Numbered from the stretch's first letter, positions 22,778 through 38,933 are shown. The stretch: 40,341 bases of DNA from Deltaproteobacteria bacterium (GCA_024639555.1 JAHEID010000003.1:1-40341), one strand, 5' to 3'. A program made the numbers and translations. The notes: generated by a model from the sequence alone, not told the origin.

Positions 22778-22789
22778 AATTTGAGACCT

Positions 22790-23100
22790 CTCTATATTTA
22801 TTATTTATGTAGTAAGAAGAATATTATTATTAAGAGCGGGAATATGTTAATAATAAATATAAAATATTGATTTTTTTATAAAAGTTTTTAAGAAAAAATT
22901 TTTATAAAAAAGGTAAAAAAAAAGAAAATAAAGTTATCAACATTTTATAAAAATAATACCAAACAAAAGAACAAAAAAAAGCAGCAAAAGAACATAATTA
23001 TTATAGTGGAAAAAGAACAAAAGAACAATGTTTTTAAATATTAAAAACAACTATTTTTTCTTTTTAATTACAAACACTTACAATATATAAAAAATAGTAA
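22790..23100. other. Candidate replication origin (oriC)
   Basis: Extremely AT-rich intergenic region upstream of dnaN; trinucleotide run (TAG TAA GAA GAA TAT TAT TAT TAA) + GAGCGGG + DnaA-box-like TGTTAATAA (22845-22853); TTATCAACA (22934-22942); AGTGGAAAA (23005-23013). Confidence 0.6.
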
Positions 23101-23103
23101 AAA

Positions 23104-24740: not shown

Positions 24741-25415
24741 TTAAATATCAACCAGCTGGCCCCTGCTCATTCTGTATTTTTTTTGTGCCTTTCCTGCCAA
24801 GCCAAGGTTGTGGGTTATCAGAATGATGGTCACTCCCTGCTTCTTGTTAATTTCTTCAAGCAGGTGCATAATTTCAGCCTCTGTCTCCTCATCCAGATCG
24901 CCAGTTGGTTCATCAGCAAGGATGATATCCGGGTTGTTTAACAGGGCCCTGGCAATTGCAACTCTTCTTTGCTGACCGCCTGAGAGTTGCGAAGGGTAAG
25001 AGTCCAGCTTTTCTCCGATCCCGACCATTTCCAGAAGGCCCCGGGCGGTATTGTCGTTATCTGTTATTTGACCGGGGTTGAATATTCCAGGCAGCAGTAC
25101 GTTTTCTTTGGCTGTAAGAATGGGCAGCAGGCTGGCAAACTGGAACATAAAGCCGATTCTTTTGGCCCTGAATTCAGACAATTTGCTGTCGTCAAGGGTG
25201 CAGATATCCACACCCTCAAGCAATACCCTTCCGGCGGTTGGCTTCAGGATGCCGCCGATGATGGAGACCAGGGTGGTTTTGCCGGAGCCAGAGTGTCCGA
25301 CAATGGATAAAAACTCTCCCCTGTTGATTGAGAGGGAGACGTTGTCCACCCCCATAAGGGTTTCGTGGTCAACAGTATAGGTTTTTGTCAGGTTTTCAAT
25401 GTGTAGAAACGACAC
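24741..25415 (-). CDS. ABC transporter ATP-binding protein (LolD/MacB-like)
   Basis: GHSGSGKT, LSGGQQRR, ILADEPTG, ITHN. Confidence 0.95.
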   Translation of the reverse strand: MSFLHIENLTKTYTVDHETLMGVDNVSLSINRGEFLSIVGHSGSGKTTLVSIIGGILKPTAGRVLLEGVDICTLDDSKLSEFRAKRIGFMFQFASLLPILTAKENVLLPGIFNPGQITDNDNTARGLLEMVGIGEKLDSYPSQLSGGQQRRVAIARALLNNPDIILADEPTGDLDEETEAEIMHLLEEINKKQGVTIILITHNLGLAGKAQKKYRMSRGQLVDI

Positions 25416-25416
25416 G

Positions 25417-26610
25417 TTATTCCTCTTTAATAACCAGCAGCGGTTCCATTTTTTTAATGCGGTTGATCGGCATCATGGCACCGGTCACACAGATTGTGGT
25501 TCCAACAAGAAGACCCACCATGGCGATTACACTTTGCTGGCTGACTGTCAGGCCCGCAGAAATGTTTTTCAGCAGGCTGAACGATCCTGCAAGCATTGCA
25601 GAAAGGTACGTGCCGGCCAACACTCCAATTATGGAGCCCAAAAGGCCCAGTACCAAAACTTCTATAAGGTAGAGTCTGACAATGTGGGACTCTTTGGCGC
25701 CCAGGGCCCGCATAATTCCAATCTCCTTTGAGCGCTCATTGGCAATGGCAGAAAAAATAGCCCAGACAAGAAAGGTTGTCAGAACTGAGGCCAGAATTGT
25801 GGTAAGCAAAAATATTTTGTTAATATCAGCCAGGGTATTGATAAACTTTTCACCCATATCACTTCTAGCCACAACATCAACCTCGGGGATTTCACCCTCA
25901 AGCACCCTTCCCACAAAATCAGGGTCATAGCCTTTTTTAAGCTTGGTGAAAATTATCGATATTTCCCCTTTTTTCAGGGGTGATTTGCCGCTTTCAATGA
26001 TGTTTTTCAGGTTATCTTCGGTCATGAACAGGGCATGATCCAGGCCGGTACCGGTTTGCTCAAGCACGCCTACAATTTTAAAGCGGTTGTCAAAAATTGT
26101 CGCCTCAATATCCAGGAGGCCGAGGCCAAGGTTTTCACTGGTGCCGAAACCTGCTATAGACTCTCCAAGCTGCAGCGGCCTGCCGAGAGACTCCTGCAGC
26201 CAGGGGTTGATGATAAAGTCTGTTTTCGGGTTATAGGCAACAATTCTGGTCGGCATGATATCGCAACAGAGCCCGGAAATTGAAGAAAGGTATGTATGGT
26301 AGGTCAAAGCCTCAATGCCTTCAATTTCCCAGACCTTTTCGATAATGCTTATCGGCATGTAGAAGGAGGTGTTTTTTGATTCAAGAAGAAATTCTTCGGC
26401 AAAGCCCCGGGCACCAACAGGCACAACAACAAGATCAGCCCCCAGGCGATCCGCAGATTTTTTCAGGCTCGACGCAACGCTGACCGTAAAAGAGATGGCA
26501 AATATCAGGAGTGATACAAGCAGGGCTATGGCGAAGACAAGCACCCCTGTGCGGAATGTTTTTCTCTTCAGGTTTTTGAGAGCTACTGAAAAAAAAGAAA
26601 TTTGAGCCAT
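25417..26610 (-). CDS. ABC transporter permease, MacB/FtsX type
   Basis: 1+3 TM topology with large periplasmic domain, ERSKEIGIMRALGA motif, unusual periplasmic GLCCD. Confidence 0.92.
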   Translation of the reverse strand: MAQISFFSVALKNLKRKTFRTGVLVFAIALLVSLLIFAISFTVSVASSLKKSADRLGADLVVVPVGARGFAEEFLLESKNTSFYMPISIIEKVWEIEGIEALTYHTYLSSISGLCCDIMPTRIVAYNPKTDFIINPWLQESLGRPLQLGESIAGFGTSENLGLGLLDIEATIFDNRFKIVGVLEQTGTGLDHALFMTEDNLKNIIESGKSPLKKGEISIIFTKLKKGYDPDFVGRVLEGEIPEVDVVARSDMGEKFINTLADINKIFLLTTILASVLTTFLVWAIFSAIANERSKEIGIMRALGAKESHIVRLYLIEVLVLGLLGSIIGVLAGTYLSAMLAGSFSLLKNISAGLTVSQQSVIAMVGLLVGTTICVTGAMMPINRIKKMEPLLVIKEE

Positions 26611-26655
26611 GCGATTTATCTTCTAATAAGCTTAAGAAAAATGAGCAGAATAAAT

Positions 26656-26695
26656 AAAAAACGGGCTTCGGATCAAAATAACCCGAAGCCCGTTT
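26656..26695 (-). terminator. Intrinsic terminator after the secreted CxxCH gene
   Basis: 13-bp stem AAACGGGCTTCGG/CCGAAGCCCGTTT with T run on the minus strand. Confidence 0.8.
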
Positions 26696-26733
26696 GTATC
26701 AATATTTACTAACTATTGCAAGACCGGAAAGAG

Positions 26734-27876
26734 TTATTTCCAGTTAGCATCCAGACCACAGAGAATGGCCTTGCCGAGTCCCTCGCCTTTATGGCAGGAA
26801 AAGCAGACAGATTCCGACTTGCCAACGGTATGCCTGTTTTCGATGTCATAAAGCAGGATGGTGCCGTCTACAGAGTCATTGCCCTCAAAGTCCTTGGCTT
26901 TTTCACGCAGGGTCATGACAGCGAATTTCCCGTCAGGCGTGGGAATGATATCATGATTTTCGCCTGGAAGCGGTGTGATCTCGTCGAGCACTTTCAGGGT
27001 TTCGGCATCGATGAGGTAACCACGGTCAGCACCGGACTGCAGGAGGTACTTGCCGTCATTGGTGAAGTACTGCCTGAAGGTGATGGTGCCGCCTGATGCA
27101 TCTTTTGGCTTTCCGGTAATCATCGCTTCGGCAAGCTTGACGGCTTTGCCCTGCTCCAGGGCTGCCATGTCAAGATACATCAGCTTGGTGTTGCCGGTCC
27201 ACTTGGTGAAGCCTGTAGGGGTGTCGTTAACGGTCAAGAGGAATTTTTTCATATCAGGTGTGTTAATGCCGTGGGCAAAGGTGGTCTCGCCGGCCTTGAT
27301 GCCGAGATCATCGAAAAACACCCTGTGCTTCAACTGCATGGTCTTTTTGTCAAACACATCGAGATATCCCTCGTTGGCCATGGAAACAGGGATGTAGGAA
27401 CTGGCGGACTGGCCGGACGCGCAATAGTTGGCGCCGGTCCATGCCGCTCTTTTCGGAGCAGGGAAGGCAGTGTCAGCTACGACTTCGCCGGTCTTGAGGT
27501 TGGTTTTTCCTACATGCAGGTTGCCGCCTTTGGCGTTTTTATCCTTCCACGTGTCGAGTTTGTAGGTTGACCAGTACATGGTATTTCTGTCACTGGCATC
27601 AATTCTGGCGTCGTGGGTAGGGTATCCGGCCCCGCCGATATCTACCATTTCAACACTGTTTACTGTAATGGGTGCAGCTTGGTTGTTGGGATTGATGCTT
27701 ACGTCGGCTTTTGAAAAGTGTCCGCCCATGCCGGCTACGTATAGGGTGCCGGAATAGGTTGGTTGCTTAGGGCTTGATGCGTCAGCAACAGGCGTATAAG
27801 AGTTTACGGTGCTGAGAGTTAGGTAGGCACCTGCTACCAGGGACAGTATCCCGACAGTTGATAATACTTTTTTCAT
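26734..27876 (-). CDS. Secreted beta-propeller-like protein with C-terminal CxxCH motif
   Basis: Signal peptide; PTHD/FAHG/ENHD repeats suggest YVTN/cd1-like blades; VCFSCH near C-terminus; GGGGG RBS. Confidence 0.8.
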   Translation of the reverse strand: MKKVLSTVGILSLVAGAYLTLSTVNSYTPVADASSPKQPTYSGTLYVAGMGGHFSKADVSINPNNQAAPITVNSVEMVDIGGAGYPTHDARIDASDRNTMYWSTYKLDTWKDKNAKGGNLHVGKTNLKTGEVVADTAFPAPKRAAWTGANYCASGQSASSYIPVSMANEGYLDVFDKKTMQLKHRVFFDDLGIKAGETTFAHGINTPDMKKFLLTVNDTPTGFTKWTGNTKLMYLDMAALEQGKAVKLAEAMITGKPKDASGGTITFRQYFTNDGKYLLQSGADRGYLIDAETLKVLDEITPLPGENHDIIPTPDGKFAVMTLREKAKDFEGNDSVDGTILLYDIENRHTVGKSESVCFSCHKGEGLGKAILCGLDANWK

Positions 27877-28063
27877 GTTTCCCCCCGTTTTTTAATTGTG
27901 TTTTTTTGTGAATTATTTTTAAGCACGACCAATAAAAATACTTAAGTATTTTTTTACCTCCTCTAGTTCAAATTAATTAAAGCTACCATCTTTGGTGGTC
28001 GCGGTAAGATGGCCTTCCTCTAACTGTTTCAATATGTTGTAAAAAAAAGATTGTAGGTAGCAT

Positions 28064-28092
28064 TAGATACCACACTGTGGTATAGTAGTCAA
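28064..28092 (-). promoter_or_regulatory. Sigma70-like promoter overlapped by a perfect palindrome
   Basis: Minus strand TTGACT-17-TATCTA; ATACCACA-C-TGTGGTAT at 28067-28083. Confidence 0.6.
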
Positions 28093-28152
28093 GAAAAAAT
28101 ATTTTTTTTTGAAACTTTTCTAACCACCTGAAATGAATAAACAAACCCTGCC

Positions 28153-28371
28153 CTATCCTGTAAGAATTTTGGTTTTGAATCCAAGCTTTTCTACTTTTTT
28201 TATTATAGTTTCAACAGCAATTTCGGCAGGCTCAAAGGTAATGGAAAAAACTCCATCCTTGTAATTGACTGAAGCGTCTTCAACCCCATCCATATCAAGC
28301 ATGACAGTTTCCATATCCATGGCACAGCCGGTGCAGACAATGCCCTCAACAAGAAACTTGATCTCGGCCAT
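28153..28371 (-). CDS. Heavy-metal-associated (HMA/CopZ-like) domain protein
   Basis: VEGIVCTGC CxxC motif, ~72 aa, ends LGFK. Confidence 0.88.
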   Translation of the reverse strand: MAEIKFLVEGIVCTGCAMDMETVMLDMDGVEDASVNYKDGVFSITFEPAEIAVETIIKKVEKLGFKTKILTG

Positions 28372-28608
28372 GATTTTTTCCTTTGATATCTCCCGAAACA
28401 AAATAATATGCAAAGGATAGGTTTATTGTTTATCCGCATTTAATTGTCAAGATTATAATAAAAAGTCAAAAATACATATAGATGTAGGGTGCGTATCGGT
28501 AGATGTATACCTTGGCAGGGCAACGCGGAACTCAAGCAGCCCTCGCAAAATAATGGACTGATATCAAAGCAAATAAAAGCAGCAGAGAAAGCACAGTACA
28601 GAAAAGAC

Positions 28609-30288
28609 ATGAAAAGAGGCAAAAAAATAGATGTGGATCAGCACCTGTTCATTTTCATCCTGAGCCTGGTTACCCCCCTTGTGCTTTATTTCAACAGACA
28701 CCTTGATGACAACAGGCTTACCAGCTGGAACTGGGTGTTTGATTTTGTTGACCTTTCCCGTGTTGGGCTTATGTTGACCGTGGCATTAATTTTAGCCTGG
28801 CTACTCAGCCGGATTTCCTTTTATGAAAAAAATAAACCACTGGTGCTTTTTGTCACTTCCTGTGTCATGGCTTCATCATTTTGGTCTATACCGGAGGTTA
28901 TTGTCGATGGAGCGCGGTATTTTACACAGGCAAAGCAACTCAGTGTTTACGGGGGTGGCTATTTTGCAAAACAGTGGGGCAGGGAAATTTTTGCCTGGAC
29001 AGATCTGCCGCTCGTTCCTTTCCTGTATGGCTTGGTGTTTAAATTTTTCGGGGAGCAAAGAATTTTCATCCAGGCCCTTAATACATTTTTTTATTCCTCG
29101 ACCGTTGTCTTAACCTACCAGCTCGGAAAAACCCTTTGGGATGAAGATACCGGGTTCCGCTCCGGATTGCTGCTTCTCGGCTTTCCATACGTGTATACCC
29201 AGGTTCCATTGATGTTGACGGATGTACCGACCATGTTTTTTTTCATGCTTGCGGTTGTTGCCACTGTCAAGGCCTTAAAAAATGGCGGAGCAGTCCGTAT
29301 TTTACTGGCCGGTTTCGCATTGTTTTTGGTTTTTTATATAAAATATTCAACCTGGATGCTTCTGACGCTTATACCGATTATTTATGCGTACTTTATATAC
29401 GTAAACCCGACCCAGACAATAAGGCGGGGGCTGGTGTTGGCCCTGTTGGCCCTTGTTCTGACAGGAGCCTTTTTTCTTGTATATAAGGATATTCTGGGTC
29501 CACAGCTTGGCTTTCTGCTAGAGTACCAGAAACCGGGCCTGCATCGCTGGGGCGAGAGCTACATTTCCACTTTTTTATTCCAAATCCATCCCTTTATAAC
29601 TGCAGCAGCCCTTTTTGCAGTTTTTACTGCAGCCAGAAAAATGGATTTCAGGTTTTTAATCGTCAGCTTTCTCCTCTTCCTCTTTTTGTTTCTGCAGGTG
29701 AAAAGAATACGCTATACAATGCCGGTTTTCCCCATGTTTGCCCTGATGGCAGCCTATGGCATGGGCGAGATACAAAACAAAAAAGTGACAAAACAGGTGG
29801 TTTTCTCTATTGTCGTCACCTCCTTTGTTGTGGCTTACATGGGCTTTCTGCCTTTTTTGAATACCCTGGGGGTCCAGAACCTGCAGGCTGCGGGGCACTA
29901 TGTAAATTCAATCCCGGGGGCCAATGTTGAGGTCGTAAGTTTTGCCGGGGACAATGCAGTGGTAAACCCTGCTACAGCTGTGCCTGTTTTGGATATTTAC
30001 ACGCATAAAACGCTTGTTTATGAGTATGAACCGGTAAAGCCGGAGGTTTTGGAACGGGTCAAATCCGCCCCGCTCCGTTTCACCTGGGAATTTTCTCTGC
30101 CCGGATACTATTCCCCCAAACCAGGCACAAAAAATATTGATGCACTGGTCCTAATTTCAGATGATCCAAAGCGGCCCCTGCCGCAAGACATTGATAAGAA
30201 AACGTCACTCTATCCATTTCAAAAAATATTTAATCAGAGTTCCAATATTTTTCAGTACCAGACATTTGTAACGGTGTACCACAAATGA
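28609..30288 (+). CDS. GT-C fold membrane glycosyltransferase (ArnT/PMT-like, family 39/83)
   Basis: Many TM helices, D..RY in first loop, D-LPL, TDVP, IKYS motifs; start uncertain (28489 or 28609). Confidence 0.82.
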   Translation: MKRGKKIDVDQHLFIFILSLVTPLVLYFNRHLDDNRLTSWNWVFDFVDLSRVGLMLTVALILAWLLSRISFYEKNKPLVLFVTSCVMASSFWSIPEVIVDGARYFTQAKQLSVYGGGYFAKQWGREIFAWTDLPLVPFLYGLVFKFFGEQRIFIQALNTFFYSSTVVLTYQLGKTLWDEDTGFRSGLLLLGFPYVYTQVPLMLTDVPTMFFFMLAVVATVKALKNGGAVRILLAGFALFLVFYIKYSTWMLLTLIPIIYAYFIYVNPTQTIRRGLVLALLALVLTGAFFLVYKDILGPQLGFLLEYQKPGLHRWGESYISTFLFQIHPFITAAALFAVFTAARKMDFRFLIVSFLLFLFLFLQVKRIRYTMPVFPMFALMAAYGMGEIQNKKVTKQVVFSIVVTSFVVAYMGFLPFLNTLGVQNLQAAGHYVNSIPGANVEVVSFAGDNAVVNPATAVPVLDIYTHKTLVYEYEPVKPEVLERVKSAPLRFTWEFSLPGYYSPKPGTKNIDALVLISDDPKRPLPQDIDKKTSLYPFQKIFNQSSNIFQYQTFVTVYHK

Positions 30289-30393
30289 CAGGTTCATGCC
30301 GTATAGGTATTTCCCCCTAATCGCAGGCCATCCCAGGAAATTTTTTTAAACACAAGGGGTTTTTCAACCACCAGTGACCATGAACCTTTTTTC

Positions 30394-30422
30394 TTGACAT
30401 TTATCATACGACAAATTATACA
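30394..30422 (+). promoter_or_regulatory. Sigma70-like promoter of the yeeE operon
   Basis: TTGACA-17-TATACA about 200 nt upstream of the start codon. Confidence 0.6.
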
Positions 30423-30626
30423 CTCCAAATTATCAAAATGAGTGAGGGTTCATTTTTTTTGTTGCTGAAAACTGCCCGCTACCTTTAAATAAAGAACAAT
30501 GCAGAAGGTTTTCAGGCAGCTTTGTATAGGGTATAGGGAAGACAAACGGTTAATTTATTCATTGAGATTTTGCATTATCAGTTCAAAATGCACCACAGTT
30601 TAATGATTTAACCATAGGGGGGAAGT

Positions 30627-32072
30627 ATGGAAGATCAAAAGAAAAAGAATATACGCAAGGCATACATTATAGCCGGTGTGTTTATCCTGATCACTGTTCT
30701 GTATGCAAGCGCAAGTGCAAATTACATGTACCTGAATGTGTATATCTGGTTTGGGCTCGCGTACGGCATGATGCTGCAATACGGCAGGTTCTGCTTTGCA
30801 TCTGCCTCGCGTGACCTTTTTGCGGCAGGGGTTCCAAGGATGGCGGTCGGGATTCTTATAGCCCTGATTTTTTTCAGCCTTATTCAAGCGTTGCTGATGG
30901 CCACAAACATGAGCACCTTCCACCCGGCACCGGCAGGGATACATACCTTGATCGCCGGGGTCATATTCGGAGTGGGGATGGTTCTTGCCGGTGGTTGTGC
31001 ATCCGGCTCCCTCTACAAAATTGGTGAAGGAAACGGCACCTCCATATTGTCCATTATGGGAATTTCTTTTGGCCAAGCCATTTTTGTAACCGCCGGAGGG
31101 CCGTTCAACAAGCTGCTGCCGCAATCCTGGATTCAGTCTTCCATGTCAAAAACCTGGCTGCCCCGCGAGAACGTCACCTCCTGGTTTGATACTTACATGA
31201 CAGGTTACATTTTTGACCTGGACACAGTCCAGCTGTCGCATACAAAATTGTTTTCAGTCCTGCCCGGCGCCTGGAAGTACTTTATCGGTGACGCACTTGT
31301 CAACGCCATTATTCCGGCGATTCTTGTTGTTGTTGTTATCTACTTCGCCTATATGAAAAAGGGCTTTATCAAGAAACGCAAAAAACATAACAAGAAAAAT
31401 CCCGACGCCCAAATTCCATTATCAGGCATGGGCGTTCATATGACAGGCATCAAGGATATGGTCCTGGCTTCCAAGCGTACCACTTTGATGGGTGTGTTGA
31501 TCGGTTGTACTGCGGGTTGGCACATTTTTGTTATGAAAGGTATGCAGCTCAAATACAATGTAACAAACTTCGGGCAGTTGCTTACCCAAATGGGCCATGG
31601 TTCAGATACAGGGATATTTGGTAACGTCTTTGATCCAGGGTACTGGTATATCACTACCCAGGAAGCCCAGTTTGCCGGTTGGATTATGGAAAAAATAGGC
31701 ATTGATATGCGCCACAATGTCTTTTTCGGCGTGGTCAACGGTTTGCCGGAATTATGGCGCAACCCGGCTCTCTGGATGTCCGTTGGTATTATTTTCGGTG
31801 CCATGATACTCTCTTTGATCAGCAACGAGTTCAAGTTCAAGGCGCCCAAGGGCGAGCTTATCGTCTGGGGTCTTGTGGGCGGCACCCTGATGGGAATCGG
31901 TTCCCGCCCCGGCCTCGGGTGCAACATCGGCGCATTTTTTATCCGGGCGGCCGGCGGCGACCCGGGCGGCTGGCTGTTTGGTCTTGGCATGGTTACAGGG
32001 GCCTTTTTTGGGGTTAAGTTCTTTAACTGGTGGACTGAAAGGAAGATGGCAAAAGAGATGGCAGATTTTTAA
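30627..32072 (+). CDS. YeeE/YedE family sulfur (thiosulfate) transport membrane protein, long form
   Basis: Three conserved Cys motifs GRFCF, LAGGCASG, GLGCNIG; adjacent TusA-like gene. Confidence 0.92.
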   Translation: MEDQKKKNIRKAYIIAGVFILITVLYASASANYMYLNVYIWFGLAYGMMLQYGRFCFASASRDLFAAGVPRMAVGILIALIFFSLIQALLMATNMSTFHPAPAGIHTLIAGVIFGVGMVLAGGCASGSLYKIGEGNGTSILSIMGISFGQAIFVTAGGPFNKLLPQSWIQSSMSKTWLPRENVTSWFDTYMTGYIFDLDTVQLSHTKLFSVLPGAWKYFIGDALVNAIIPAILVVVVIYFAYMKKGFIKKRKKHNKKNPDAQIPLSGMGVHMTGIKDMVLASKRTTLMGVLIGCTAGWHIFVMKGMQLKYNVTNFGQLLTQMGHGSDTGIFGNVFDPGYWYITTQEAQFAGWIMEKIGIDMRHNVFFGVVNGLPELWRNPALWMSVGIIFGAMILSLISNEFKFKAPKGELIVWGLVGGTLMGIGSRPGLGCNIGAFFIRAAGGDPGGWLFGLGMVTGAFFGVKFFNWWTERKMAKEMADF

Positions 32073-32122
32073 TATAGTTTAACTATCGGAACTATCATAA
32101 ATGAATTTGGAGGAAAACTAAA

Positions 32123-32377
32123 ATGGCTGAAATGAAATTTACAAAAACCAGTGATGATACCTATGTATTGGATGTTTGCGGATATGTTTGCCCGCATCCT
32201 CAGCTGTACTGCAAAAAATCATTGGAAAAAATGGAAGAAGGCGACACCTTAAAGCTTATCTTTGACAATGCTTCATCGGGTGAAACCATTATTCAGATGT
32301 GCGAGCAGGCCGGCCACGAAATCCTGGAGCAGGACAAGGAAGGCGGCAAAATCATCTTTATGATCGAAAAAGGATAG
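32123..32377 (+). CDS. TusA/YeeD/YedF family sulfur carrier
   Basis: LDVCGYVCPHP (CPxP) motif, 84 aa, GGAGG RBS. Confidence 0.92.
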   Translation: MAEMKFTKTSDDTYVLDVCGYVCPHPQLYCKKSLEKMEEGDTLKLIFDNASSGETIIQMCEQAGHEILEQDKEGGKIIFMIEKG

Positions 32378-32424
32378 GAACTCTTTTTCTTTTGGAGCAT
32401 AAAAGGCTCTAAGGAGGTCAACAC

Positions 32425-32874
32425 ATGAATAAGCCTCTGGCGATAATAATAGTAATAGTGGTTGGAATGCTGGGGTACCTAACTATGTACAGTCAGACCG
32501 GTAAAGTGCCTGAAGTAGAAAAGGTTGGGGAAAGCCAGGAAGGGCAGGATGCACAGCCTTCCGGTGGCTATGGAGCCGCCCCAGCCCCGGCCGCAGGTGG
32601 CTATGGTGCCCCACCACCTCCAGCAGGCGGTTATGGCGCTCCGCCACCAGCTGCAGGCGGATATGGTGCTCCGCCACCAGCTGCAGGCGGATATGGTGCT
32701 CCGCCACCTCCAGCAGGCGGTTATGGCGCTCCTCCGCCTCCAGCAGGCGGTTATGGCGCTCCTCCGCCTCCAGCAGGCGGTTATGGCGCTCCTCCGCCTC
32801 CAGCAGGTGGTTATGGTGCTCCTCCGCCTCCAGCAGGTGGTTATGGTGCTCCTCCGCCTCCAGCGCGGCAATAG
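32425..32874 (+). CDS. Membrane-anchored Gly/Tyr/Pro repeat protein
   Basis: N-terminal TM/signal anchor, then 10 GGYGA(P/A)n units; AAGGAGG RBS; repeat variation is largely at third codon positions in this frame. Confidence 0.85.
   Translation: MNKPLAIIIVIVVGMLGYLTMYSQTGKVPEVEKVGESQEGQDAQPSGGYGAAPAPAAGGYGAPPPPAGGYGAPPPAAGGYGAPPPAAGGYGAPPPPAGGYGAPPPPAGGYGAPPPPAGGYGAPPPPAGGYGAPPPPAGGYGAPPPPARQ
32563..32865 (+). repeat. 30-bp coding tandem repeat x10 (GGYGAPPPPA)
   Basis: Unit approx. GGYGGTTATGGYGCTCCKCCRCCTCCAGCA; first unit 33 bp. Confidence 0.97.
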
Positions 32875-32943
32875 AGTATTTGATTACGGGGGCCATCAAA
32901 CAATATGATATGGATTCTCGTTAACCGATAACGGGTGAATGTG

Positions 32944-33405
32944 ATGAATAAAATATTGATCTCAGTTGATGATACGAAAAGTTCGAAAGAAATTTTTGAG
33001 AAATGTACGCAGATGTGCAAATGCATGGCACCTGAAGAAATCATCCTGCTGTACGTTGAAAAATTTGCCGGCAGGTCTCTTATGGACGAGATGCTGGGTG
33101 ATGCTGAGCTGAGTACACTTGCGGATGTGGTCCAAGGCACTGAATTTAAAGAAGCCATGGACAAGAAGGCTGAAAAGATACTGAATTTTTATAAAAGTTC
33201 CCTTGAAGAACGGTCTCCGGTACCCAATATCCGGACAATGGTAAAGACCGGTATACCGGCTGAAGAAATTGTCCAGACAGCCAAAGATGAGGATGTCAGC
33301 TTGATTATCATTGGTTCCAGAGGAAAAAGGGCCCGCCTTTTCATGGGAAGCGTCAGCAGGGAGGTTGCCAATACTGCTGACCGTCCGGTGATGATTGTCA
33401 AATAA
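32944..33405 (+). CDS. Universal stress protein (USP)
   Basis: KILISVD, G.PAEEI, IIIGSRG, MGSVS, PVMIVK. Confidence 0.93.
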   Translation: MNKILISVDDTKSSKEIFEKCTQMCKCMAPEEIILLYVEKFAGRSLMDEMLGDAELSTLADVVQGTEFKEAMDKKAEKILNFYKSSLEERSPVPNIRTMVKTGIPAEEIVQTAKDEDVSLIIIGSRGKRARLFMGSVSREVANTADRPVMIVK

Positions 33406-33493
33406 TATTTTAACTGCTGCCAATGTATCGCAGCACGCTTTTCAGTTCAGATAATACCTGAGCCCGAAATAATCGTGGGTCCGGGAGATATTG

Positions 33494-33533
33494 AAGCCAG
33501 GAGAGTCAGCGTATGGGCTCTCCTGGCTTTTTT
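33494..33533 (+). terminator. Intrinsic terminator of the yeeE-tusA-repeat-usp operon
   Basis: AAGCCAGGAGAGT/GCTCTCCTGGCTT stem plus T run. Confidence 0.85.
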
Positions 33534-33646
33534 ATTTGGCGATGTTGCCTTTACAATTTATTACCAGCATAGAAGCCCTTAAAAGACTATAATAGATATA
33601 AAGAAAAGTAAATTCCCGTGAAAGTTCATTGGAAAATAAGCAAAAG

Positions 33647-35080
33647 ATGAAATGTGCGCTTATAATACCCGCCTGGGCCCCGGAGGATATTTTTTCCACA
33701 AAAACAGCGGGCTCCCAGATTAATTACTGGCAGCCGCTTGGTACACTTTATGTTGCTGCAGCTTTGCAACAGGCAGGCCACAAGGTGCGGTTTTATAATG
33801 GGGCCTTTATGGCTCATGATGAAATAATGCAGCATGTTCAAGAGTATCAGCCGGAATTTGTCGGCCTCTATTCCACCGCCTTTGGCTGGGGAAAGGCCAA
33901 AGTGACGGCAGCTGCCGTAAAACAAAGCCTTACTGATGTTTTCCTGACAGTTGGCGGGCCCTATCCCGTAGCGCTGCAGGAAAAATGTTTTGAGGACTGC
34001 CCGGATATTGATGCTGTAGTAACAGGCGAGGGAGAGATAACGATTGTTGAAATGCTCGCCAGGCTTGACTCTGGAGCAGACCTTGACGGGGTAGAGGGAG
34101 TGGCCTACCGACAGGGCAAAAAAATCAAGAAAAACCCACCCCGTCCCCTTATCACCGACCTGGATGCGCTGCCCTTTCCTGCCCGGGAACTTTTGGGTGA
34201 AGCCGGCAAATATATTCCCCCGCCTGCCACCTACAAAAGAAAGCCTGTTGCCGTCATCATGACCGCCAGGGGCTGCAACCGCAACTGCCTGTACTGTTTT
34301 CAGATAGACAAACACCGCAAAAGCGGCATACGGTATCGTTCAGTGGAAAACGTTATGGCAGAGATCGAGTTTGTCTTGGGCCAGGGCTACAGGGAGATCA
34401 AGTTTATCGATGACACTCTTGCAGCTGATTACAACAGGGCCATGACTCTTGCCAATGAAATAAAGAAGCGTAACCTTGATTTCACCTGGTTCGCCTCAGC
34501 TGTTGTGAACCAGGTTGACAGGCCTTTGCTGCAGGCCTTTAAGGATGCTGGATGCTGGGCTATTTTATTCGGTGCTGAAAGCGGCGTGCAGAAGGATTTG
34601 AATGCCATCCGTAAAGGCATAACACCGAACCAAATCCGTAAGGCGGTGAAGGCTGCCAAAGAGGTGGGACTGACAGTGTATACACCTTTTCTCTTTGGTA
34701 TACCGGGGCAGACCTTCGAGGATGGACTGAAAACCATTGAATTTGCCCTGGAACTCGACCCGGATATTGCCAATTTTCATGCCATAACACCGTTCCCCGG
34801 CACCGAGCTCTATGATAATATCGAAAAATACGGCACAATGTCTGAGGATTTGTCAGACTTCACTTACCAGGGTGCAGCCTTTGTACCGTTTACCATGACA
34901 CGGGAGCAGATTTCCGAGCTGCGGCAGCTGGCCCTCAAGAAATTCTATTCCCGCCCAAAGTTCCTCTGGCGCCGGGTCCTGGCGCTTCGCAGTTTAAACG
35001 ACCTTCTTGCCGCCTGGCAGGGAATTAAAAGCCTGTTTTGGCTGCAGGCAGAAAATAACCTTTTCAAGCGCAGCAGGTAA
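33647..35080 (+). CDS. Cobalamin-binding radical SAM protein
   Basis: PLGTLYVAA, VGGPYP, GEGE (B12 domain); RGCNRNCLYC; FIDD; GAESG; TPFPGT. Confidence 0.93.
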   Translation: MKCALIIPAWAPEDIFSTKTAGSQINYWQPLGTLYVAAALQQAGHKVRFYNGAFMAHDEIMQHVQEYQPEFVGLYSTAFGWGKAKVTAAAVKQSLTDVFLTVGGPYPVALQEKCFEDCPDIDAVVTGEGEITIVEMLARLDSGADLDGVEGVAYRQGKKIKKNPPRPLITDLDALPFPARELLGEAGKYIPPPATYKRKPVAVIMTARGCNRNCLYCFQIDKHRKSGIRYRSVENVMAEIEFVLGQGYREIKFIDDTLAADYNRAMTLANEIKKRNLDFTWFASAVVNQVDRPLLQAFKDAGCWAILFGAESGVQKDLNAIRKGITPNQIRKAVKAAKEVGLTVYTPFLFGIPGQTFEDGLKTIEFALELDPDIANFHAITPFPGTELYDNIEKYGTMSEDLSDFTYQGAAFVPFTMTREQISELRQLALKKFYSRPKFLWRRVLALRSLNDLLAAWQGIKSLFWLQAENNLFKRSR

Positions 35081-35248
35081 TATTTTCTTCCTGAAAATAT
35101 ACGAGTTGGGGTTGCAGGCTTATTCAAGGAGTCAATATTCCTGCCACTGTGATGCAGTACAACAGCAGGTTTCGCTATATGCGCCAGTTTGCGAAGCCCC
35201 CCTATAAAGATAGAATGCTTTTTCTGAAATGGTCATGAATACTTCGGG

Positions 35249-36337
35249 TTAGAGCTGCAGGTATTCCTTTAACAGGGCAGGGTAGCGGCTGGGATTGAAT
35301 AAAATATTGGTCATGAAATAGCACTCGTGGGTACAGTGGCAGCCCATGTCGTGTATGAATTGAAGAATTTGTCTGGAGCGATCAGATTCCAGCAATTTCT
35401 GCAGGTCATATTCACTCTCCCGCACATTGCCGAATTTCATCTGCTCAGAAAAATCCTCACAGGGGTAGAGGTCTCCGGTTTCGGTCAGCACCAGGTTCAG
35501 CTTTCCGGCATAACAGGGGGCGGTGCGCTTTGATTGGCGGGAAGCCTCATGGATAAGACGGCGCTGGAGAATATCCTGGGCCGCCTTGAGTTTGGCCCCC
35601 CGGAAACGATACATTGATGCCAGTCTTTTTTTCAGGTCTGACTCCAGCCGGTCAATAACTTTTTTGTACTTGTCTAGATCCACCTGCTTCAGGTCATCAC
35701 GGAAGACCTCGCCCCGGATGAGGGAGACCGTATGGGTCTTGACCTGGGGCAGAGTTTGGACCTTGTCTATGACTTCATCAATATATTCCTGGTTGTCCCG
35801 GCAGAATACGGTGTTGATGCCGAGTTCAAAGTTGCCATACCTGTGAACGAGTTTTCCCAGTGCCTTGCAGGTCTTGAGAGTTTTCTGGTAAGCGCCTGCA
35901 ACCCCGCGCAGCTCATCATGGACCTTTTCCGGGCCATCAAGGGAAAGCTTGACCACAATGGAGCTTTTGGGGCACTCCTGCAGGATGGTTTCCACCGCAT
36001 GGTAAATTGTCTCCTGCAGCAGGCCGTTGGTGGGCAGAAGAATGATCGCCGGCCGGTTGATTCTGTAAAAAAGCTGCGTAATTTGAACAAGGTCGGAACG
36101 CAGAAAAATTTCGCCGCCGGAAAATGCCAGCCACAGAAGTTTACCGAGCTGCGGCGCTAATTTTTCTATTTCAGCAAGGGAAAGCTCATTGCGCGACGAA
36201 AGGGGTTGGTCCTTTTGGGAGACATAGAAGCAGAAAGGGCACTTGGCATTACACCTGCGGGTGAGAAAAAAAGTAAACTGGATAGGGCGGCTTTTCCATA
36301 CGATAGAACCAAGGTGCCGGAAAGGGGAAAAGGTCAT
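35249..36337 (-). CDS. Radical SAM protein with SPASM/twitch domain
   Basis: CNAKCPFC, SGGE, SLDG, CYAG...GDLYPCE...CHCTHEC; ATG at 36337 overlaps the GT2 stop (ATGA). Confidence 0.92.
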   Translation of the reverse strand: MTFSPFRHLGSIVWKSRPIQFTFFLTRRCNAKCPFCFYVSQKDQPLSSRNELSLAEIEKLAPQLGKLLWLAFSGGEIFLRSDLVQITQLFYRINRPAIILLPTNGLLQETIYHAVETILQECPKSSIVVKLSLDGPEKVHDELRGVAGAYQKTLKTCKALGKLVHRYGNFELGINTVFCRDNQEYIDEVIDKVQTLPQVKTHTVSLIRGEVFRDDLKQVDLDKYKKVIDRLESDLKKRLASMYRFRGAKLKAAQDILQRRLIHEASRQSKRTAPCYAGKLNLVLTETGDLYPCEDFSEQMKFGNVRESEYDLQKLLESDRSRQILQFIHDMGCHCTHECYFMTNILFNPSRYPALLKEYLQL

Positions 36338-37335
36338 GGCCGCAACCCGAAATGTTGGCTGAAAAAACCGCTGCAGACGCCAATGCCCACAGCAAAGGGA
36401 TAGACCAAGGTATAATACAGCACGGCGGGGATTGCAAAAAAAGGACCGCGGACCGCGAAAAAAGCCCGGGCAAGATGCCGGTTGAGGAACAGGTTGCTGC
36501 CAAAGAGCAGCAGGATCGGCAGCACGAAAGTCCAGTTTTTCAGCAGAACACCTGTAAGTATCAGCAGGATATTGATAAAACACGAAAGCACATTAAATTT
36601 GAATTCCTGTGAAGCGGTGCCGGAGTCGGAAAGCAGGTCTTTGTTTTTAATGGAATAGATGGACCAGTATTTTGATTTTTTTATGCCGTTGCGCATTGAT
36701 CCGGCCAGGGTGAAATTAAAAATATGCTGTACCTGGATCTCTGGAACCATGCGCAGTTTAACACCCACTTTTTTCAGGCGATGGCTGAATTCCACATCCT
36801 CCAGTATGGGCATGAACTGTTCATTAAAACCGCCACTTTTTTGAAAAAGGTCTTTTGCGATAAGCATGGCGTGGGTGGCTACATAGTCAGGGTTCCGGGT
36901 GTTTTTTGTTTCAGAATAATGAATGTAGACGGATTGGAAGATGCTGAAGAATTGCTGATCATAGGGCAGCAGGGTATAAGTGCCGCCAATAATAACTCCG
37001 GGCCCCTCTTCCTGATATGCAGCAGCCGCCTTTGCCAGGGTGTCGGATTGCAGGAGGCAGTCACCGTCAATGAAAAAGAGCACATCGCCGTTGCTGTTTT
37101 GGGCCCCGGTGTTTCTTGCCCTGGAAGCACCGCCATGTTCTGACAGGCGCATGAGTCTGCAGGGATATTTCTCTATAATAGTTGTGGAGCTGTCAGCAGA
37201 ACAATCGTCAACGACAACAACTTCAAAGTTGGTATATTGTGAAGCAAAGGCGGCATCCAGGCAGCGGCCGATGGTTTTTTCGCCGTTGTAATTTGGAATG
37301 ATAACAGATATGAAGGGCGTCACGGGGAGATTCAA
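36334..37335 (-). CDS. Glycosyltransferase family 2 with C-terminal TM helices
   Basis: SVIIPNYN, VVVDDCSAD, ARNTG, FIDGD, GGF...EDVEF. Confidence 0.93.
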   Translation of the reverse strand: MNLPVTPFISVIIPNYNGEKTIGRCLDAAFASQYTNFEVVVVDDCSADSSTTIIEKYPCRLMRLSEHGGASRARNTGAQNSNGDVLFFIDGDCLLQSDTLAKAAAAYQEEGPGVIIGGTYTLLPYDQQFFSIFQSVYIHYSETKNTRNPDYVATHAMLIAKDLFQKSGGFNEQFMPILEDVEFSHRLKKVGVKLRMVPEIQVQHIFNFTLAGSMRNGIKKSKYWSIYSIKNKDLLSDSGTASQEFKFNVLSCFINILLILTGVLLKNWTFVLPILLLFGSNLFLNRHLARAFFAVRGPFFAIPAVLYYTLVYPFAVGIGVCSGFFSQHFGLRP

Positions 37336-37369
37336 TGACTATCCTGGCCTTGATTCGCATGGGGAGATT

Positions 37370-37406
37370 AAACAAAAAGAGGCCCCATGGAGAGGCCCCT
37401 TTTGTT
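37370..37406 (-). terminator. Probable terminator after the tusA-dsrEFH-like operon
   Basis: AACAAAAAGAGGCC...GGCCCCTTTTGTT inverted repeat. Confidence 0.55.
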
Positions 37407-37427
37407 GTCTAATCTTGTCAAATATTC

Positions 37428-37601
37428 TTACCACCAGCAGATGGTCTGGTCTGCGGCAAAAACCTTGCCTACCAGGGCATCATAATCAGGATTATCTGCA
37501 TTAAGATCAAAGCTGTCGCTGTCTCTTCCTTCGGAAACGATTTCAACGAGTTTTTTCGTGGTTTCAGAAGGCGCTGAACGATATACATGTAAAATTTTCA
37601 T
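37428..37601 (-). CDS. Small DsrH/TusB-like protein (absent from ORF track)
   Basis: Own translation MKILHVYRSAPSETTKKLVEIVSEGRDSDSFDLNADNPDYDALVGKVFAADQTICWW* (57 aa); AAGGAG RBS; M.LH...DY..LV....W pattern recalls DsrH. Confidence 0.75.
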   Translation of the reverse strand: MKILHVYRSAPSETTKKLVEIVSEGRDSDSFDLNADNPDYDALVGKVFAADQTICWW

Positions 37602-37639
37602 AATTATTATCTCCTTCTTGTTTAGCGTGTATTTTTAAT

Positions 37640-37787
37640 ATTCTCGTAAAAGTCTCAGGGATGGTTAAGCAAAAATTTTGATATACAAGGAGTAGTGAAT
37701 TTTTGAGAGTGAAGCCATACATGCGGTATGCTGCACGAACAAAAATGTGCTACGACGCAGTAGATCGGACTTTTTGCGATGCCATCA
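37640..37787. repeat. MITE/REP-like element (copy 2)
   Basis: GATGGTTAAGCAAAAA...GTAGATCGGACTTTTTGCGATGCCATCA, colinear with 15246-15372. Confidence 0.75.
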
Positions 37788-37790
37788 TCT

Positions 37791-38096
37791 TTAGTTGCCG
37801 TAGGGAACAATAACGTCCATCTCTCTGAGCTTCTGTCCCACCTCTTCCAGCGTGACAGCAGTTAAACCGTTGGTGTCAATATTGGCCTGCTCAGTCGAAT
37901 AAACATCCCCTTCCATGTCAAGAATCCACTCGACATTTTCAGCGTTGTAGTCATCAAACTTGGCCAGGGTGTGATTCATGATCACAGCATATGAGTAATG
38001 GTTGGCAACGGAAAGCCCCAGGGTGGAGCGGAGGGCATCCAAGGTGTTTTTTTCGTCATCACTTTTATCTAATAGAAACATAACTTTTTTCGGCAT
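37791..38096 (-). CDS. DsrF/TusC-like protein
   Basis: KKVMFL...DALRSTLGL...MDVIVPY fits the DsrE/F fold; no Cys; lies between DsrE-like and DsrH-like genes. Confidence 0.65.
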   Translation of the reverse strand: MPKKVMFLLDKSDDEKNTLDALRSTLGLSVANHYSYAVIMNHTLAKFDDYNAENVEWILDMEGDVYSTEQANIDTNGLTAVTLEEVGQKLREMDVIVPYGN

Positions 38097-38106
38097 GGCT
38101 TCCCCC

Positions 38107-38421
38107 TTACAGAGTCATATATTTTTCGCAGTCATCAATGAGATATCCGTGCTTGGCCTGGGTTGACATTTCCTTGGCGGTAAGACCTTCGGGAATGTCA
38201 TTTTCAGGGTCATATCCCATCTTTTTGTAGCTGTCTGCACAGATCGCAACTTCATCAGCAATTTTGCAGATCTCGGGGAACTGGGGATCCCTGGCAAGCA
38301 TCGTTCCTTTCCATGTGAAAAACACTTTGACAGTGGCCCCTTTCGCCTTGGCCGCCTTGGTAACCCCCATGACGTGCGCCATGTTCTTGGGGTTCGTTAC
38401 AAAAATACCTAAATTTGCCAT
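38107..38421 (-). CDS. DsrE/TusD-like sulfurtransferase
   Basis: VKVFFT..G, AICADS (candidate active Cys); GGAGG RBS. Confidence 0.82.
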   Translation of the reverse strand: MANLGIFVTNPKNMAHVMGVTKAAKAKGATVKVFFTWKGTMLARDPQFPEICKIADEVAICADSYKKMGYDPENDIPEGLTAKEMSTQAKHGYLIDDCEKYMTL

Positions 38422-38496
38422 GTTTACCTCCTAAACAGAAATTAGGTCGCATCTTTGCTGAAAAAAGAAAGTGCAACAGTTAATGTTTTGTTTGAT

Positions 38497-38733
38497 TTAC
38501 CCCTTTTTAATATAAAACTTAAAATAATTCGTTTCCTCTTTTGCTCCCAGAAAGGCATGCCCAACGCGCTCACACCACCCGGGCAGATCGATTTTGGAAC
38601 CCTCATCAGTGCCGAGGATTTCGAGGACCTGGCCGCTTTCCAGTGTTTCTATAGCTTTTTTTGCTTTCAGGAGAGGCATGGGGCAATCCAAACCTTTCGC
38701 ATCGAGCGTTTTGTCAGCCTTAATGGTATCCAT
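38497..38733 (-). CDS. tusA: Sulfur carrier protein TusA
   Basis: LDAKGLDCPMP, TD.GS..D...WC...GH, FYIKK; ATG at 38733. Confidence 0.92.
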   Translation of the reverse strand: MDTIKADKTLDAKGLDCPMPLLKAKKAIETLESGQVLEILGTDEGSKIDLPGWCERVGHAFLGAKEETNYFKFYIKKG

Positions 38734-38933
38734 GTCTAAAATTCCCCGTTCATAAAAAAACAAAACCCGGTCGCCATAAGGAGTCAGGGGTTTTCAGCAT
38801 CATGAGGGGCTCTGCTAAAAGCAAGGATCCTGGCACCACAGCGTGGTAACCGCCTCTCGCTTTAATGATCAAAAAAGACTAGTTACCATAAACAAAAAAG
38901 AAAACCCACAAAAAATGAAGCATAATTCATTTT

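Follow-up and report, generated by a model that had tools for sequence, protein, structure and literature searches.

A radical SAM and glycosyltransferase gene set co-inherited with a YTD-like sulfur relay in two bacterial phyla

Umezawa et al. (2020), as represented in the papers citing them, put forward the five-gene YTD cluster as an indicator of sulfur disproportionation. According to the accessible text of Plum-Jensen et al. (ISME J 2026, PMC13293266), three small YTD proteins form a DsrEFH-like complex, named DsrEFH type II, which was found in 985 genomes, mainly of Desulfobacterota and Nitrospirota with reductive dsrAB, membership being assigned above 80 bits with the authors' three hidden Markov models. 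In vitro, the DsrE/F/H heterotrimer or hexamer, studied with proteins of another genus, took sulfur from TusA on a single conserved cysteine and moved it to DsrC; the active-site residue of the DsrE-like protein is Cys67 in Electronema aureum (PMC13293266, same text). It is debated whether YTD or dsrEFH type II marks disproportionation or a 'reverse' sulfur oxidation in sulfate reducers, and the way in which YTD carriers acquire elemental sulfur or polysulfide is stated to be unknown in the accessible parts of three papers (PMC13293266, PMC13047784, PMC12998232). The 2026 survey, as far as its accessible text goes, scored only annotated sulfur-metabolism genes as co-localised (PMC13293266). 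The present analysis concerns a locus at positions 24741-38733 of an entire 40-kb contig (JAHEID010000003.1, 40,341 nucleotides, hereafter the window), which belongs to a 2.4-Mb metagenome-assembled genome with 85% completeness. The host is Desulfobulbaceae-like, its nearest public relatives being labelled Desulfobulbaceae or Desulfobulbales. The core of the locus is very likely a YTD or dsrEFH type II sulfur relay. It is accompanied by an add-on set consisting of a family 2 glycosyltransferase (GT2) gene coupled to a SPASM radical SAM gene, a B12-binding radical SAM gene, a GT-C glycosyltransferase gene, a long-form yeeE with its own tusA (TusA1), and genes for a universal stress protein (USP) and a membrane-anchored GGYG-repeat protein. 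The core is known; the new part is this co-inherited radical SAM/glycosyltransferase/GGYG extension, which was found in two phyla.

Genes were called by Pfam and NCBIfam scans of the window proteins with the family cut-offs applied, and all genes that an initial annotation had listed for the locus were found in place (Pfam/NCBIfam, sequence or model). The core is encoded on the minus strand as a tusA-dsrE-dsrF-dsrH unit running from 38763 to 37428. Its first gene (38497-38763, probable start at 38733) encodes TusA2, with a CPMP motif and a TusA score of 88 bits, and is followed by the genes for a DsrE type II-like sulfur transferase (38107-38421), a DsrF type II-like protein of 101 amino acids (37791-38096) and a DsrH type II-like protein of 57 amino acids, orf57 (37428-37601), the latter two corresponding to the YTD 'chp' genes. 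Among these three small proteins the DsrE-like one alone matched Pfam DsrE, below the cut-off (20.8 vs. 22.7 bits); the other two had no family match and were assigned by synteny. As a contrast set, regions of ±10 kb around the DsrE type II (DsrE-II) gene were taken, within the window's phylum, from 20 genomes without the radical SAM pair of the add-on and from six genomes with it. The loci of all 20 pair-less genomes were compact, with tusA (16/20 at the stricter filter) and then dsrE, dsrF and dsrH. The gene order of the window was complete in 18 of them, the remaining two being without an orf57 match only; the DsrF-like gene was syntenic in 19, the twentieth having a related form (c9), and the DsrH-like homologue in 18. 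Cys61 of the DsrE-like protein was invariant in ten of ten aligned sequences from two phyla and probably corresponds to Cys67 of E. aureum. The initial annotation had pointed out that dsrC and dsrAB are missing. This is true of the window, but dsrC (114.9 bits, over the cut-off, contig C141) and dsrA with a dsrB-like neighbour (583.5 bits, over the cut-off, contig C55) were found elsewhere in the host genome. The lack of dsrC in the window is therefore no argument for a biosynthetic role of the relay.

The window resembles the YTD loci in that tusA precedes the genes of a DsrE-like protein with one conserved cysteine and of two small conserved proteins, and in that a YeeE-family gene with a TusA partner lies nearby. 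The host also resembles YTD carriers, being Desulfobulbaceae-like with dsrA and dsrC present. In canonical YTD clusters, however, a short YeeE is encoded beside tusA or dsrE (15 of the 20 compact loci, relaxed tblastn), whereas the sole YeeE of the window is of a long form, is encoded 5 kb from tusA-dsrEFH and has its own TusA. The genes of the GGYG-repeat protein, the USP, both radical SAM enzymes and the GT2 are located between the YeeE-TusA1 pair and tusA-dsrEFH, and the GT-C gene lies upstream of yeeE. Since yeeE is not directly beside tusA-dsrEFH, the window represents a variant arrangement and not a canonical YTD cluster. No GT2, SPASM, GT-C, USP or GGYG gene and no orthologue of the B12 enzyme was found in any of the 20 pair-less YTD loci.

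Co-inheritance of the add-on with the sulfur relay

A search centred on the SPASM gene returned 402 pattern-matching stretches; a relative is encoded in 257 of these, and the 80 best loci went into the analysis. About ten of these were Desulfobulbales-like and the remainder were mostly Nitrospirota, with 51-64% identity. Neighbours were counted with every window protein as a tblastn query against these loci, at least half of the query being covered; many of the loci end at contig edges. The GT2 gene was recovered in 75 loci, followed by the genes for the B12 enzyme (30), USP (25), GT-C and TusA1 (23 each), TusA2 (22), YeeE (19), the DsrF-like protein (18), the ATP-binding cassette (ABC) ATPase (16), the DsrE-like and DsrH-like proteins (15 each), the FtsX permease and the propeller protein (13 each) and the HMA protein (6). 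Where at least 8 kb of flanking sequence was available on each side (29 loci), the GT2 gene was present in all 29, at least one partner gene in 18 and a sulfur-relay gene in 13. De novo clustering of the open reading frames (ORFs) of the loci gave exactly the genes of the window as the commonest neighbour families. In Nitrospirota the recurring order was GT2, SPASM, B12 enzyme, flavoprotein, USP, GGYG, TusA1, YeeE, GT-C, and a rhodanese or DsrE. Gene order varied across at least four arrangements and the partners remained grouped. This clustering is far beyond chance, and there is little doubt that the genes of the locus are functionally linked.

Several families outside the window recurred in the loci as well, namely a PRK07208-type FAD oxidoreductase (the flavoprotein mentioned above) adjoining the B12 enzyme gene in 18 loci, three rhodanese families with signal peptides, an ExtKL-type multihaem cytochrome and a PHP-domain protein. 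The cytochrome (L036:949-1857; 352 bits, cut-off 250) was repeatedly encoded close to the extended locus, in Nitrospirota as well as in the window's phylum. It is accompanied by rhodaneses weakly resembling ExtH, and the NCBIfam names tie both families to selenite/tellurite reduction.

The co-occurrence of the genes was then considered at the level of genomes. The window's phylum was represented by a sample of 401 genomes. Eight of them, the window's own included, carried a SPASM orthologue (E<=1e-110; 48-56% identity), and 11 further genomes carried paralogues only (29-38% identity). Orthologues of the B12 enzyme (62-76% identity) were found in the same eight genomes, in addition to a weaker match of 47% in genome G181. 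The DsrE-II profile matched 82 of the 401 genomes, including all eight add-on genomes and excluding G181, and in the seven positive genomes besides the window's own, the DsrE-II gene was within about 3 kb of the SPASM gene. The six pair-bearing genomes of the contrast set all carried GT2-SPASM beside dsrEFH-II; the B12 enzyme (on another contig in the sixth genome), the GT-C and the flavoprotein were each encoded in five of these six add-on loci.

The Nitrospirota sample comprised 191 genomes (SPASM threshold E<=1e-80). A SPASM orthologue was present in 32 and a B12 enzyme orthologue in 35 of them; 31 genomes had both genes, one had the SPASM gene only, four had the B12 enzyme gene only and 155 had neither, two of the latter containing a SPASM paralogue only (35-36% identity). 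The two genes were often on separate contigs or 170-250 kb apart (G536, G447). In five of five Nitrospirota genomes with GT2-SPASM among housekeeping genes, the B12 enzyme gene lay apart from this pair and shared an operon with those of the flavoprotein, USP, TusA1 and YeeE. These five operons contained DsrE-II in three cases, and the GGYG gene in two cases by tblastn and in all five by motif scan. Two of them are co-directional arrays of rhodanese, DsrF-like, DsrE-II, YeeE, TusA1, GGYG, USP and flavoprotein genes with the B12 enzyme gene last; the other three are shorter, one with the GT-C gene ahead of yeeE. GT-C orthologues were encoded elsewhere in four of four Nitrospirota genomes tested. 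The initial annotation had named a lack of co-occurrence in other genomes as a refutation of its reading; the genes do co-occur there, including in genomes of a second phylum, both when adjacent and when unlinked.

Enzymes, repeat protein and periplasmic unit

The membrane GT2 (333 amino acids; 36334-37335, minus strand; Glycos_transf_2, 105.5 bits) was modelled with a predicted local distance difference test score (pLDDT) of 92 and a predicted template modelling score (pTM) of 0.89. The model was closest to cellulose-synthase-like GT2s: the Chlorella virus hyaluronan synthase (8snc_A; Z 24.2 over 314 residues, root-mean-square deviation (rmsd) 3.5), the minimal archaeal mannosyltransferase PcManGT (6yv7_A; Z 22.6 over 284 residues) and BcsA (4p00_A; Z 22.3 over 311 residues), with rmsd values of 3.3-3.5 on structures of this kind. 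Carrier-charging enzymes gave lower Z scores and larger deviations (DPMS, Z 16.0 and rmsd 9.2; ArnC, 16.0 and 8.4; GtrB, 15.3 and 13.8). The pairs D43/D44, D90/D92 and E179/D180 were invariant in 30 orthologues, and an invariant N216..K220..W224 stands in place of QxxRW, the equivalence of the motifs being judged by eye. Sequence identity to the hyaluronan synthase, BcsA and PcManGT is 13-16%, and the processive synthases are far larger proteins. In the model, the GT2 is thus a minimal cellulose-synthase-like membrane fold with a GT-A domain, interface helices and a transmembrane (TM) bundle. Because it superposes better on this class than on GtrB, ArnC or DPMS, the scheme of the initial annotation, in which the GT2 charges a lipid carrier with a sugar that the GT-C then transfers, is not the best fit.

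The SPASM radical SAM enzyme (362 amino acids; 35249-36337, minus strand; Pfam Radical_SAM and SPASM, no RRE domain) starts at Met83 of the long ORF, as judged from the N-termini of its orthologues, and its ATG overlaps the GT2 stop codon as ATGA, an overlap read directly in the sequence of the two translationally coupled genes. A complex prediction for both proteins scored 0.00, which speaks neither for nor against binding. Since the enzyme begins about 25 residues before the radical SAM core, it has no leader-recognition domain. Its NCBIfam matches were all far under the cut-offs, with AhbD as the best (65 bits); comparison with PDB sequences gave only distant maturases and a tetraether synthase (E 8e-7), and comparison with the Protein Atlas only generic radical SAM/SPASM clusters. 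The B12-binding radical SAM enzyme (33629-35080, plus strand; B12-binding 63.8 bits, Radical_SAM 73.9 bits) had HpnJ (TIGR03471) as its best named match, with 200.5 bits against a cut-off of 577.6, and scored 176.6 bits with BchE (cut-off 481). The identity of its orthologues, given above, holds across phyla. The distant homologue in G181 (G181:C202:6746-8149) contains one in-frame TGA, which could be a selenocysteine codon or a break.

The polytopic GT-C (28489-30288, plus strand, probable start Met at 28609) is PMT_2/ArnT-like (PMT_2, 34.2 bits vs. a cut-off of 26.1) with at least nine hydrophobic segments; a PDB sequence search gave no solved relative. In one Nitrospirota genome that retains GT2-SPASM and the B12 operon, the GT-C orthologue (G401:C6:5408-7138) has 10 in-frame stops and is probably a decaying copy.

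Distant SPASM paralogues (31-37% identity, other Desulfobacterota) were beside a GT2 gene in six of ten loci and beside a B12 radical SAM gene in three of ten. Their loci also hold genes for PMT_2 GT-C proteins with TPR domains (two loci), the same type of flavoprotein, a Wzx-like flippase, an epimerase and UbiA; no sulfur-relay or GGYG gene was found in them. These cassettes indicate that the GT2-SPASM pair, to which a B12 radical SAM enzyme and a GT-C may be added, constitutes a general type of envelope-glycoconjugate cassette, and the orthologous group of the window is the version tied to the sulfur relay.

The YeeE of the window, a long form of 481 amino acids (30627-32072, plus strand), is a sulfur-species transporter of the YeeE/YedE type. 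It is matched over the cut-off by the broad Pfam family Sulf_transp only (133 bits); its best NCBIfam match, YedE/FdhT (131 vs. 350 bits), and TsuA (95.7 vs. 400 bits) are under the equivalog cut-offs. The YeeEs of canonical YTD clusters align only to residues ~5-153 and 366-479 of the window protein, whose two YeeE halves are separated by an insertion of about 210 residues. This insert (residues ~155-375) includes a Lys-rich loop and extra hydrophobic segments and has no counterpart in the canonical YTD YeeEs. TusA1 (32123-32377, plus strand; TusA, 75.6 bits) is a TusA/YeeD-type sulfur carrier with a CPHP motif.

Between the genes for TusA1 and the USP (32935-33405, plus strand; Usp, 71.3 bits), a membrane-anchored protein with one N-terminal TM helix and 10 GGYG units is encoded (32425-32874, plus strand), which was recognized from its sequence. 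Members of this family carry 4-14 GGYG units behind an N-terminal TM helix, separated by variable spacers of Ala, Pro and Ser, and only Gly and Tyr of the repeats are conserved across the two phyla. The gene was found in this position, between those of TusA1 and the USP, in 23 loci from both phyla, always within the add-on operon. From the positive-inside rule, a periplasmic location of the repeats is probable. The GGYG protein may resemble the Gly/Tyr-rich sulfur globule proteins, on which a literature search gave nothing usable.

The left part of the locus encodes, on the minus strand, a LolD/MacB/FtsE-like ABC ATPase (24741-25415; ABC_tran 125.7 bits, best NCBIfam match LolD with 230 bits, under the cut-off), an FtsX/MacB-type permease with four predicted TM helices (25417-26610; FtsX 72.4 bits, MacB_PCD 21.9 bits vs. 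a cut-off of 27), a secreted propeller protein of 380 amino acids (26734-27876, no Pfam or NCBIfam match) and an HMA metallochaperone-like protein with a CTGC motif (28153-28413, probable start Met at 28374; HMA 46.3 bits). The permease has a vicinal Cys-Cys (residues 114-115) in the periplasmic loop between TM1 and TM2, which was kept in 14 of 14 members including those of Nitrospirota. The propeller protein has a signal-anchor-like N-terminal hydrophobic helix and, in the alignment, seven invariant His, four invariant Cys and a conserved C-terminal CxxCH (CFSCH at residues 358-362). Its model (pLDDT 79, pTM 0.81) has six blades with 24 strands, and the best 50 structural matches were generic six-bladed propellers (1npe_A, Z 24.8); the PDB sequence search gave a single match (E 0.81), in which the CxxCH stretch aligned with a cytochrome c. 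The family has 944 homologues, and the 120 listed were all named 'hypothetical' or 'WD40 repeat'. A copper-sulfide site like that of NosZ or thiocyanate dehydrogenase was considered for the propeller and found no support: neither protein was among the best 50 matches of either structure search, and the modelled fold has six blades, not seven. The best NCBIfam match of the HMA protein was a 'UxxU (seleno)protein' model (60 bits vs. a cut-off of 95).

The initial annotation had counted the ABC, propeller and HMA genes as part of one pathway with the remaining genes. The propeller gene, however, was present in nine of the 401 genomes of the phylum, namely in five of the eight add-on genomes and in four others; eight of the nine have DsrE-II, and the gene can lie 2 Mb from the add-on locus (G278). 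The propeller/FtsX unit adjoins GT2-SPASM in 13 of the 80 loci, both phyla together. We regard the ABC/FtsX/propeller/HMA unit as a periplasmic accessory of sulfur metabolism of the DsrE-II type, separable from the add-on and not integral to it. In Nitrospirota the propeller-FtsX-ABC unit is preceded by a small DsrF-like gene. This encodes a protein of 89 amino acids (e.g. L069:8627-8908), occurs often without DsrE, heads the unit and is divergent from the GT2 gene.

The genes between 24741 and 38733 form three divergent or convergent strand groups, which are split further by three strong terminator-like hairpins: one with a 17-bp stem between the propeller and FtsX genes (26659-26695, minus strand), one with a 15-bp stem 3' of the USP gene (33493-33530, plus strand) and one with a 12-bp stem between the dsrH-like and GT2 genes (37375-37403, minus strand). 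The 14-kb block is therefore not a single operon and represents a mosaic of at least five transcription units. Outside the locus, dnaN (21644-22777, minus strand) follows gyrB and gyrA and adjoins the kilobase with the highest AT content in the window (GC 0.31, 22001-23000); the region 21644-23104 could be a replication origin, with no dnaA gene adjacent. A gene with the Beta-lactamase/penicillin-binding serine-hydrolase fold (23104-24249; Pfam Beta-lactamase, 127 bits) is located between this origin-like region and the cluster and was beside the cluster in none of the 80 related loci. Finally, two ORFs of 492 (1428-2906) and 103 (698-1009) amino acids with no Pfam family lie in a stretch with a GC content of 0.37-0.41.

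Proposed role of the add-on and alternative explanations

The reading preferred here, tentatively and at a probability just short of even, is that the locus is an extended YTD or dsrEFH-II locus of a Desulfobulbaceae-like sulfate reducer or disproportionator, in which the add-on makes a glycoconjugate for sulfur capture. TusA2 and the type II DsrE/F/H proteins would pass sulfane sulfur towards DsrC and DsrAB encoded elsewhere; transfer from TusA to DsrE to DsrC has been shown for orthologues (PMC13293266, accessible text). The YeeE-family channel with its own TusA would bring sulfur species across the inner membrane. The GT2, made 1:1 with the SPASM enzyme, and the HpnJ/BchE-like B12 enzyme may produce a radical-SAM-tailored membrane glycoconjugate at the cytoplasmic membrane, with the PRK07208-type flavoprotein as a probable part of the set in most relatives. 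The GT-C might complete or attach the glycoconjugate on the periplasmic side, for which the GGYG anchor appears the likeliest carrier or partner, and the product could serve the capture of zero-valent sulfur or polysulfide and its hand-over to the long-form YeeE. In this way the add-on would be an accessory to the relay and not a consumer of its sulfur. The arrangement fits the observations that the add-on was never seen without DsrE-II (8/8 genomes of the window's phylum) and yet occurs in only about one tenth of the DsrE-II genomes, that it brings its own YeeE and TusA, that periplasmic rhodaneses and the GT-C are encoded in the arrays, and that paralogous cassettes occur without a sulfur relay. 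Taken by itself, the formation of an envelope glycoconjugate by the add-on is about as probable as its opposite. A function of the product in sulfur acquisition is possible and somewhat doubtful.

Several observations weigh against this reading. In 11 of the 29 well-flanked loci, GT2-SPASM had no partner gene nearby. In the window's phylum only eight of the 82 DsrE-II genomes carry the add-on, so the relay works without it, and these eight genomes represent four genera and are not independent events. The GGYG gene was present in only three of the six add-on loci of this phylum, and the flavoprotein is absent from the window, its sole homologue in the genome being 38% identical and encoded on another contig. 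Transfer of the whole set between the two phyla is possible and would inflate the adjacency counts; such block transfer, however, does not explain co-occurrence where the genes are unlinked. Contigs of 90-99% likeness from RNA libraries covered 25-29 of 30 bins (four runs, two studies), but they cannot prove transcription, since DNA carry-over is possible and strand, level and operon ends are not shown by them; the bins without coverage carry no information. Lastly, the function in sulfur acquisition is one that we infer purely from co-inheritance.

The main rival is the model of the initial annotation, in which sulfur or selenium from the relay would reach the radical SAM enzymes and be built by them into a sugar, lipid or metal cofactor that is exported and attached outside the cytoplasm. 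The constant company of DsrE-II in the add-on genomes, compared with 82 of 401 genomes overall, agrees with this model, as do the co-directional array that the B12 enzyme gene shares with yeeE and tusA1 in five of five Nitrospirota operons, the dedicated second TusA and long-form YeeE accompanying the add-on, and the periplasmic rhodaneses that flank the GT-C gene in relatives. Moreover, C-S bond formation is within the reach of radical SAM enzymes that have auxiliary clusters. Set against this, the DsrEFH-II orthologues give their sulfur to DsrC in vitro (PMC13293266, accessible text) and both dsrC and dsrA are in the genome, which means that the relay already has a catabolic sink, and the paralogous GT2/SPASM/B12 cassettes occur without any sulfur-relay gene, which indicates that the chemistry does not need a relay. 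No known sulfur-inserting family was matched (MiaB/RimO 27-38 bits vs. 200 for HpnJ). As to selenium, none of the listed SPASM matches (26 in the window's phylum, 36 in Nitrospirota) was interrupted by an in-frame stop, and the HMA CxxC was encoded as Cys, not TGA, in four of four orthologous loci. No supporting evidence was found for sulfur or selenium in a sugar, lipid or cofactor, and the model is considered unlikely.

The second rival assigns the radical SAM enzymes a peptide substrate. The SPASM and B12 enzymes would modify the Tyr residues of the GGYG repeats or their neighbours and an MftF-like GT2 would glycosylate the phenol, giving a membrane-anchored redox-active or glycosylated polymer by the logic of mycofactocin and PQQ. 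The exclusive conservation of Gly and Tyr in all repeats of two phyla and the restriction of the GGYG gene, in all 23 loci, to the add-on operon are in line with this chemistry. The best NCBIfam match of the GT2 is MftF (TIGR03965), with a score, however, of 93.7 bits against a cut-off of 280, and the weak matches of the SPASM enzyme include the mycofactocin maturase (TIGR03962, 50.1 bits vs. a cut-off of 265), PqqE and cyclophane-forming maturases, all far under the cut-offs. Neither a leader-recognition domain in the SPASM enzyme nor a PqqD/MftB-like gene in the loci was seen, the repeats are probably periplasmic and hence away from the cytoplasmic enzymes, and the paralogous cassettes lack a GGYG gene. 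Tyr-directed chemistry is accordingly regarded as distinctly unlikely.

A more elaborate form of the preferred reading is speculative and quite improbable. Here the add-on would build a periplasm-facing 'sulfur-capture coat', a GGYG anchor to which the GT2, the SPASM and B12 enzymes and the GT-C add a radical-SAM-tailored glycan, possibly Tyr-linked or sulfur-bearing. The coat would bind or solubilise zero-valent sulfur and pass it to the long-form YeeE, with the ABC motor of the Cys-Cys FtsX and the CxxCH propeller as a mechanical and redox helper. If true, the coat would supply the first step that is missing from elemental-sulfur uptake in some of the disproportionators and sulfide oxidisers with a reductive Dsr system.

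Hitch-hiking of an envelope cassette without a sulfur role, moved between Nitrospirota and Desulfobacterota on a YTD island, is very improbable. The patchy distribution (8/401 and ~32/191 genomes), the high cross-phylum identity of the B12 enzyme and the presence of similar cassettes in non-sulfur contexts would fit such a transfer, but the genes co-occur even when on other contigs or 170-250 kb apart, the partners stay grouped through the reshuffled orders, and TusA1, YeeE, DsrE and rhodanese genes are interleaved with add-on genes in one co-directional array. An already known pathway (hopanoid tailoring by HpnI/J/K, tRNA thiolation, which TusA and DsrE-family proteins also serve, or a nitrous-oxide-reductase-type copper-sulfide assembly for the propeller) is extremely improbable, for although HpnJ is the top named match of the B12 enzyme and a propeller with seven invariant His is encoded beside an ABC system and a metallochaperone, the HpnJ score is far under its cut-off, HpnI is not matched, the scans gave no mnmA or tusE-like gene in the window, and the six-bladed propeller resembles generic propellers among its best 50 matches.

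The preferred reading, in which the add-on serves the relay by capturing sulfur, bears on research into sulfur disproportionation and sulfur oxidation of the cable-bacteria type. The conserved extension provides candidates for sulfur acquisition: two radical SAM enzymes, two membrane glycosyltransferases, a long YeeE and a Gly/Tyr-repeat anchor. It also sets apart a group of YTD carriers whose physiology may not be that of the others, and a genomic context is now given to three unannotated families, the GGYG anchor, the CxxCH propeller and the GT2-coupled SPASM enzyme.

Comparison with known systems

The initial annotation did not recognize the locus as a described pathway. This stands for the whole gene set, which was absent from the literature found, no paper there linking the add-on genes to YTD; it does not stand for TusA/DsrE/F/H and the YeeE-TusA pair, which correspond to YTD/dsrEFH type II. 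The terms 'radical SAM' and 'glycosyltransferase' did not occur in the accessible texts of PMC13293266, PMC13047784 and PMC9751629, the supplements of which may show more neighbours, nor 'glycosyl' and 'radical SAM' in that of PMC12998232.

Three glycosylation and maturation systems share parts with the add-on. In hopanoid tailoring, a membrane GT2 (HpnI) glycosylates a lipid and a B12 radical SAM enzyme (HpnJ) reworks the sugar in a pathway that also includes HpnK. The add-on differs by its extra SPASM enzyme, its GT-C and the sulfur relay, and its B12 enzyme reaches one third of the HpnJ cut-off. The NCBIfam scan gave no HpnI or HpnK match in the window, and HpnB scored 26 bits. Squalene-hopene cyclase (PF13243) was not found in the host genome, which, at 85% completeness, does not prove its absence; hopanoid tailoring is on this account unlikely. 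Three-component periplasmic glycosylation combines a GT2 of the GtrB/ArnC/DPMS type, a flippase and an ArnT/PMT-type GT-C, and the add-on likewise comprises a co-inherited GT2 and PMT_2 GT-C; unlike that system, it has radical SAM partners without counterpart there and no flippase gene in the window. Mycofactocin biosynthesis pairs a SPASM radical SAM enzyme (MftC) with a GT2 (MftF), and in both systems a small Tyr-bearing protein is encoded. The add-on lacks equivalents of MftA, MftB, MftD and MftE as well as a leader-binding domain, and all its scores are under the cut-offs. Whereas the substrate in mycofactocin biosynthesis is a short precursor peptide, the candidate substrate of the add-on is a membrane-anchored repeat protein.

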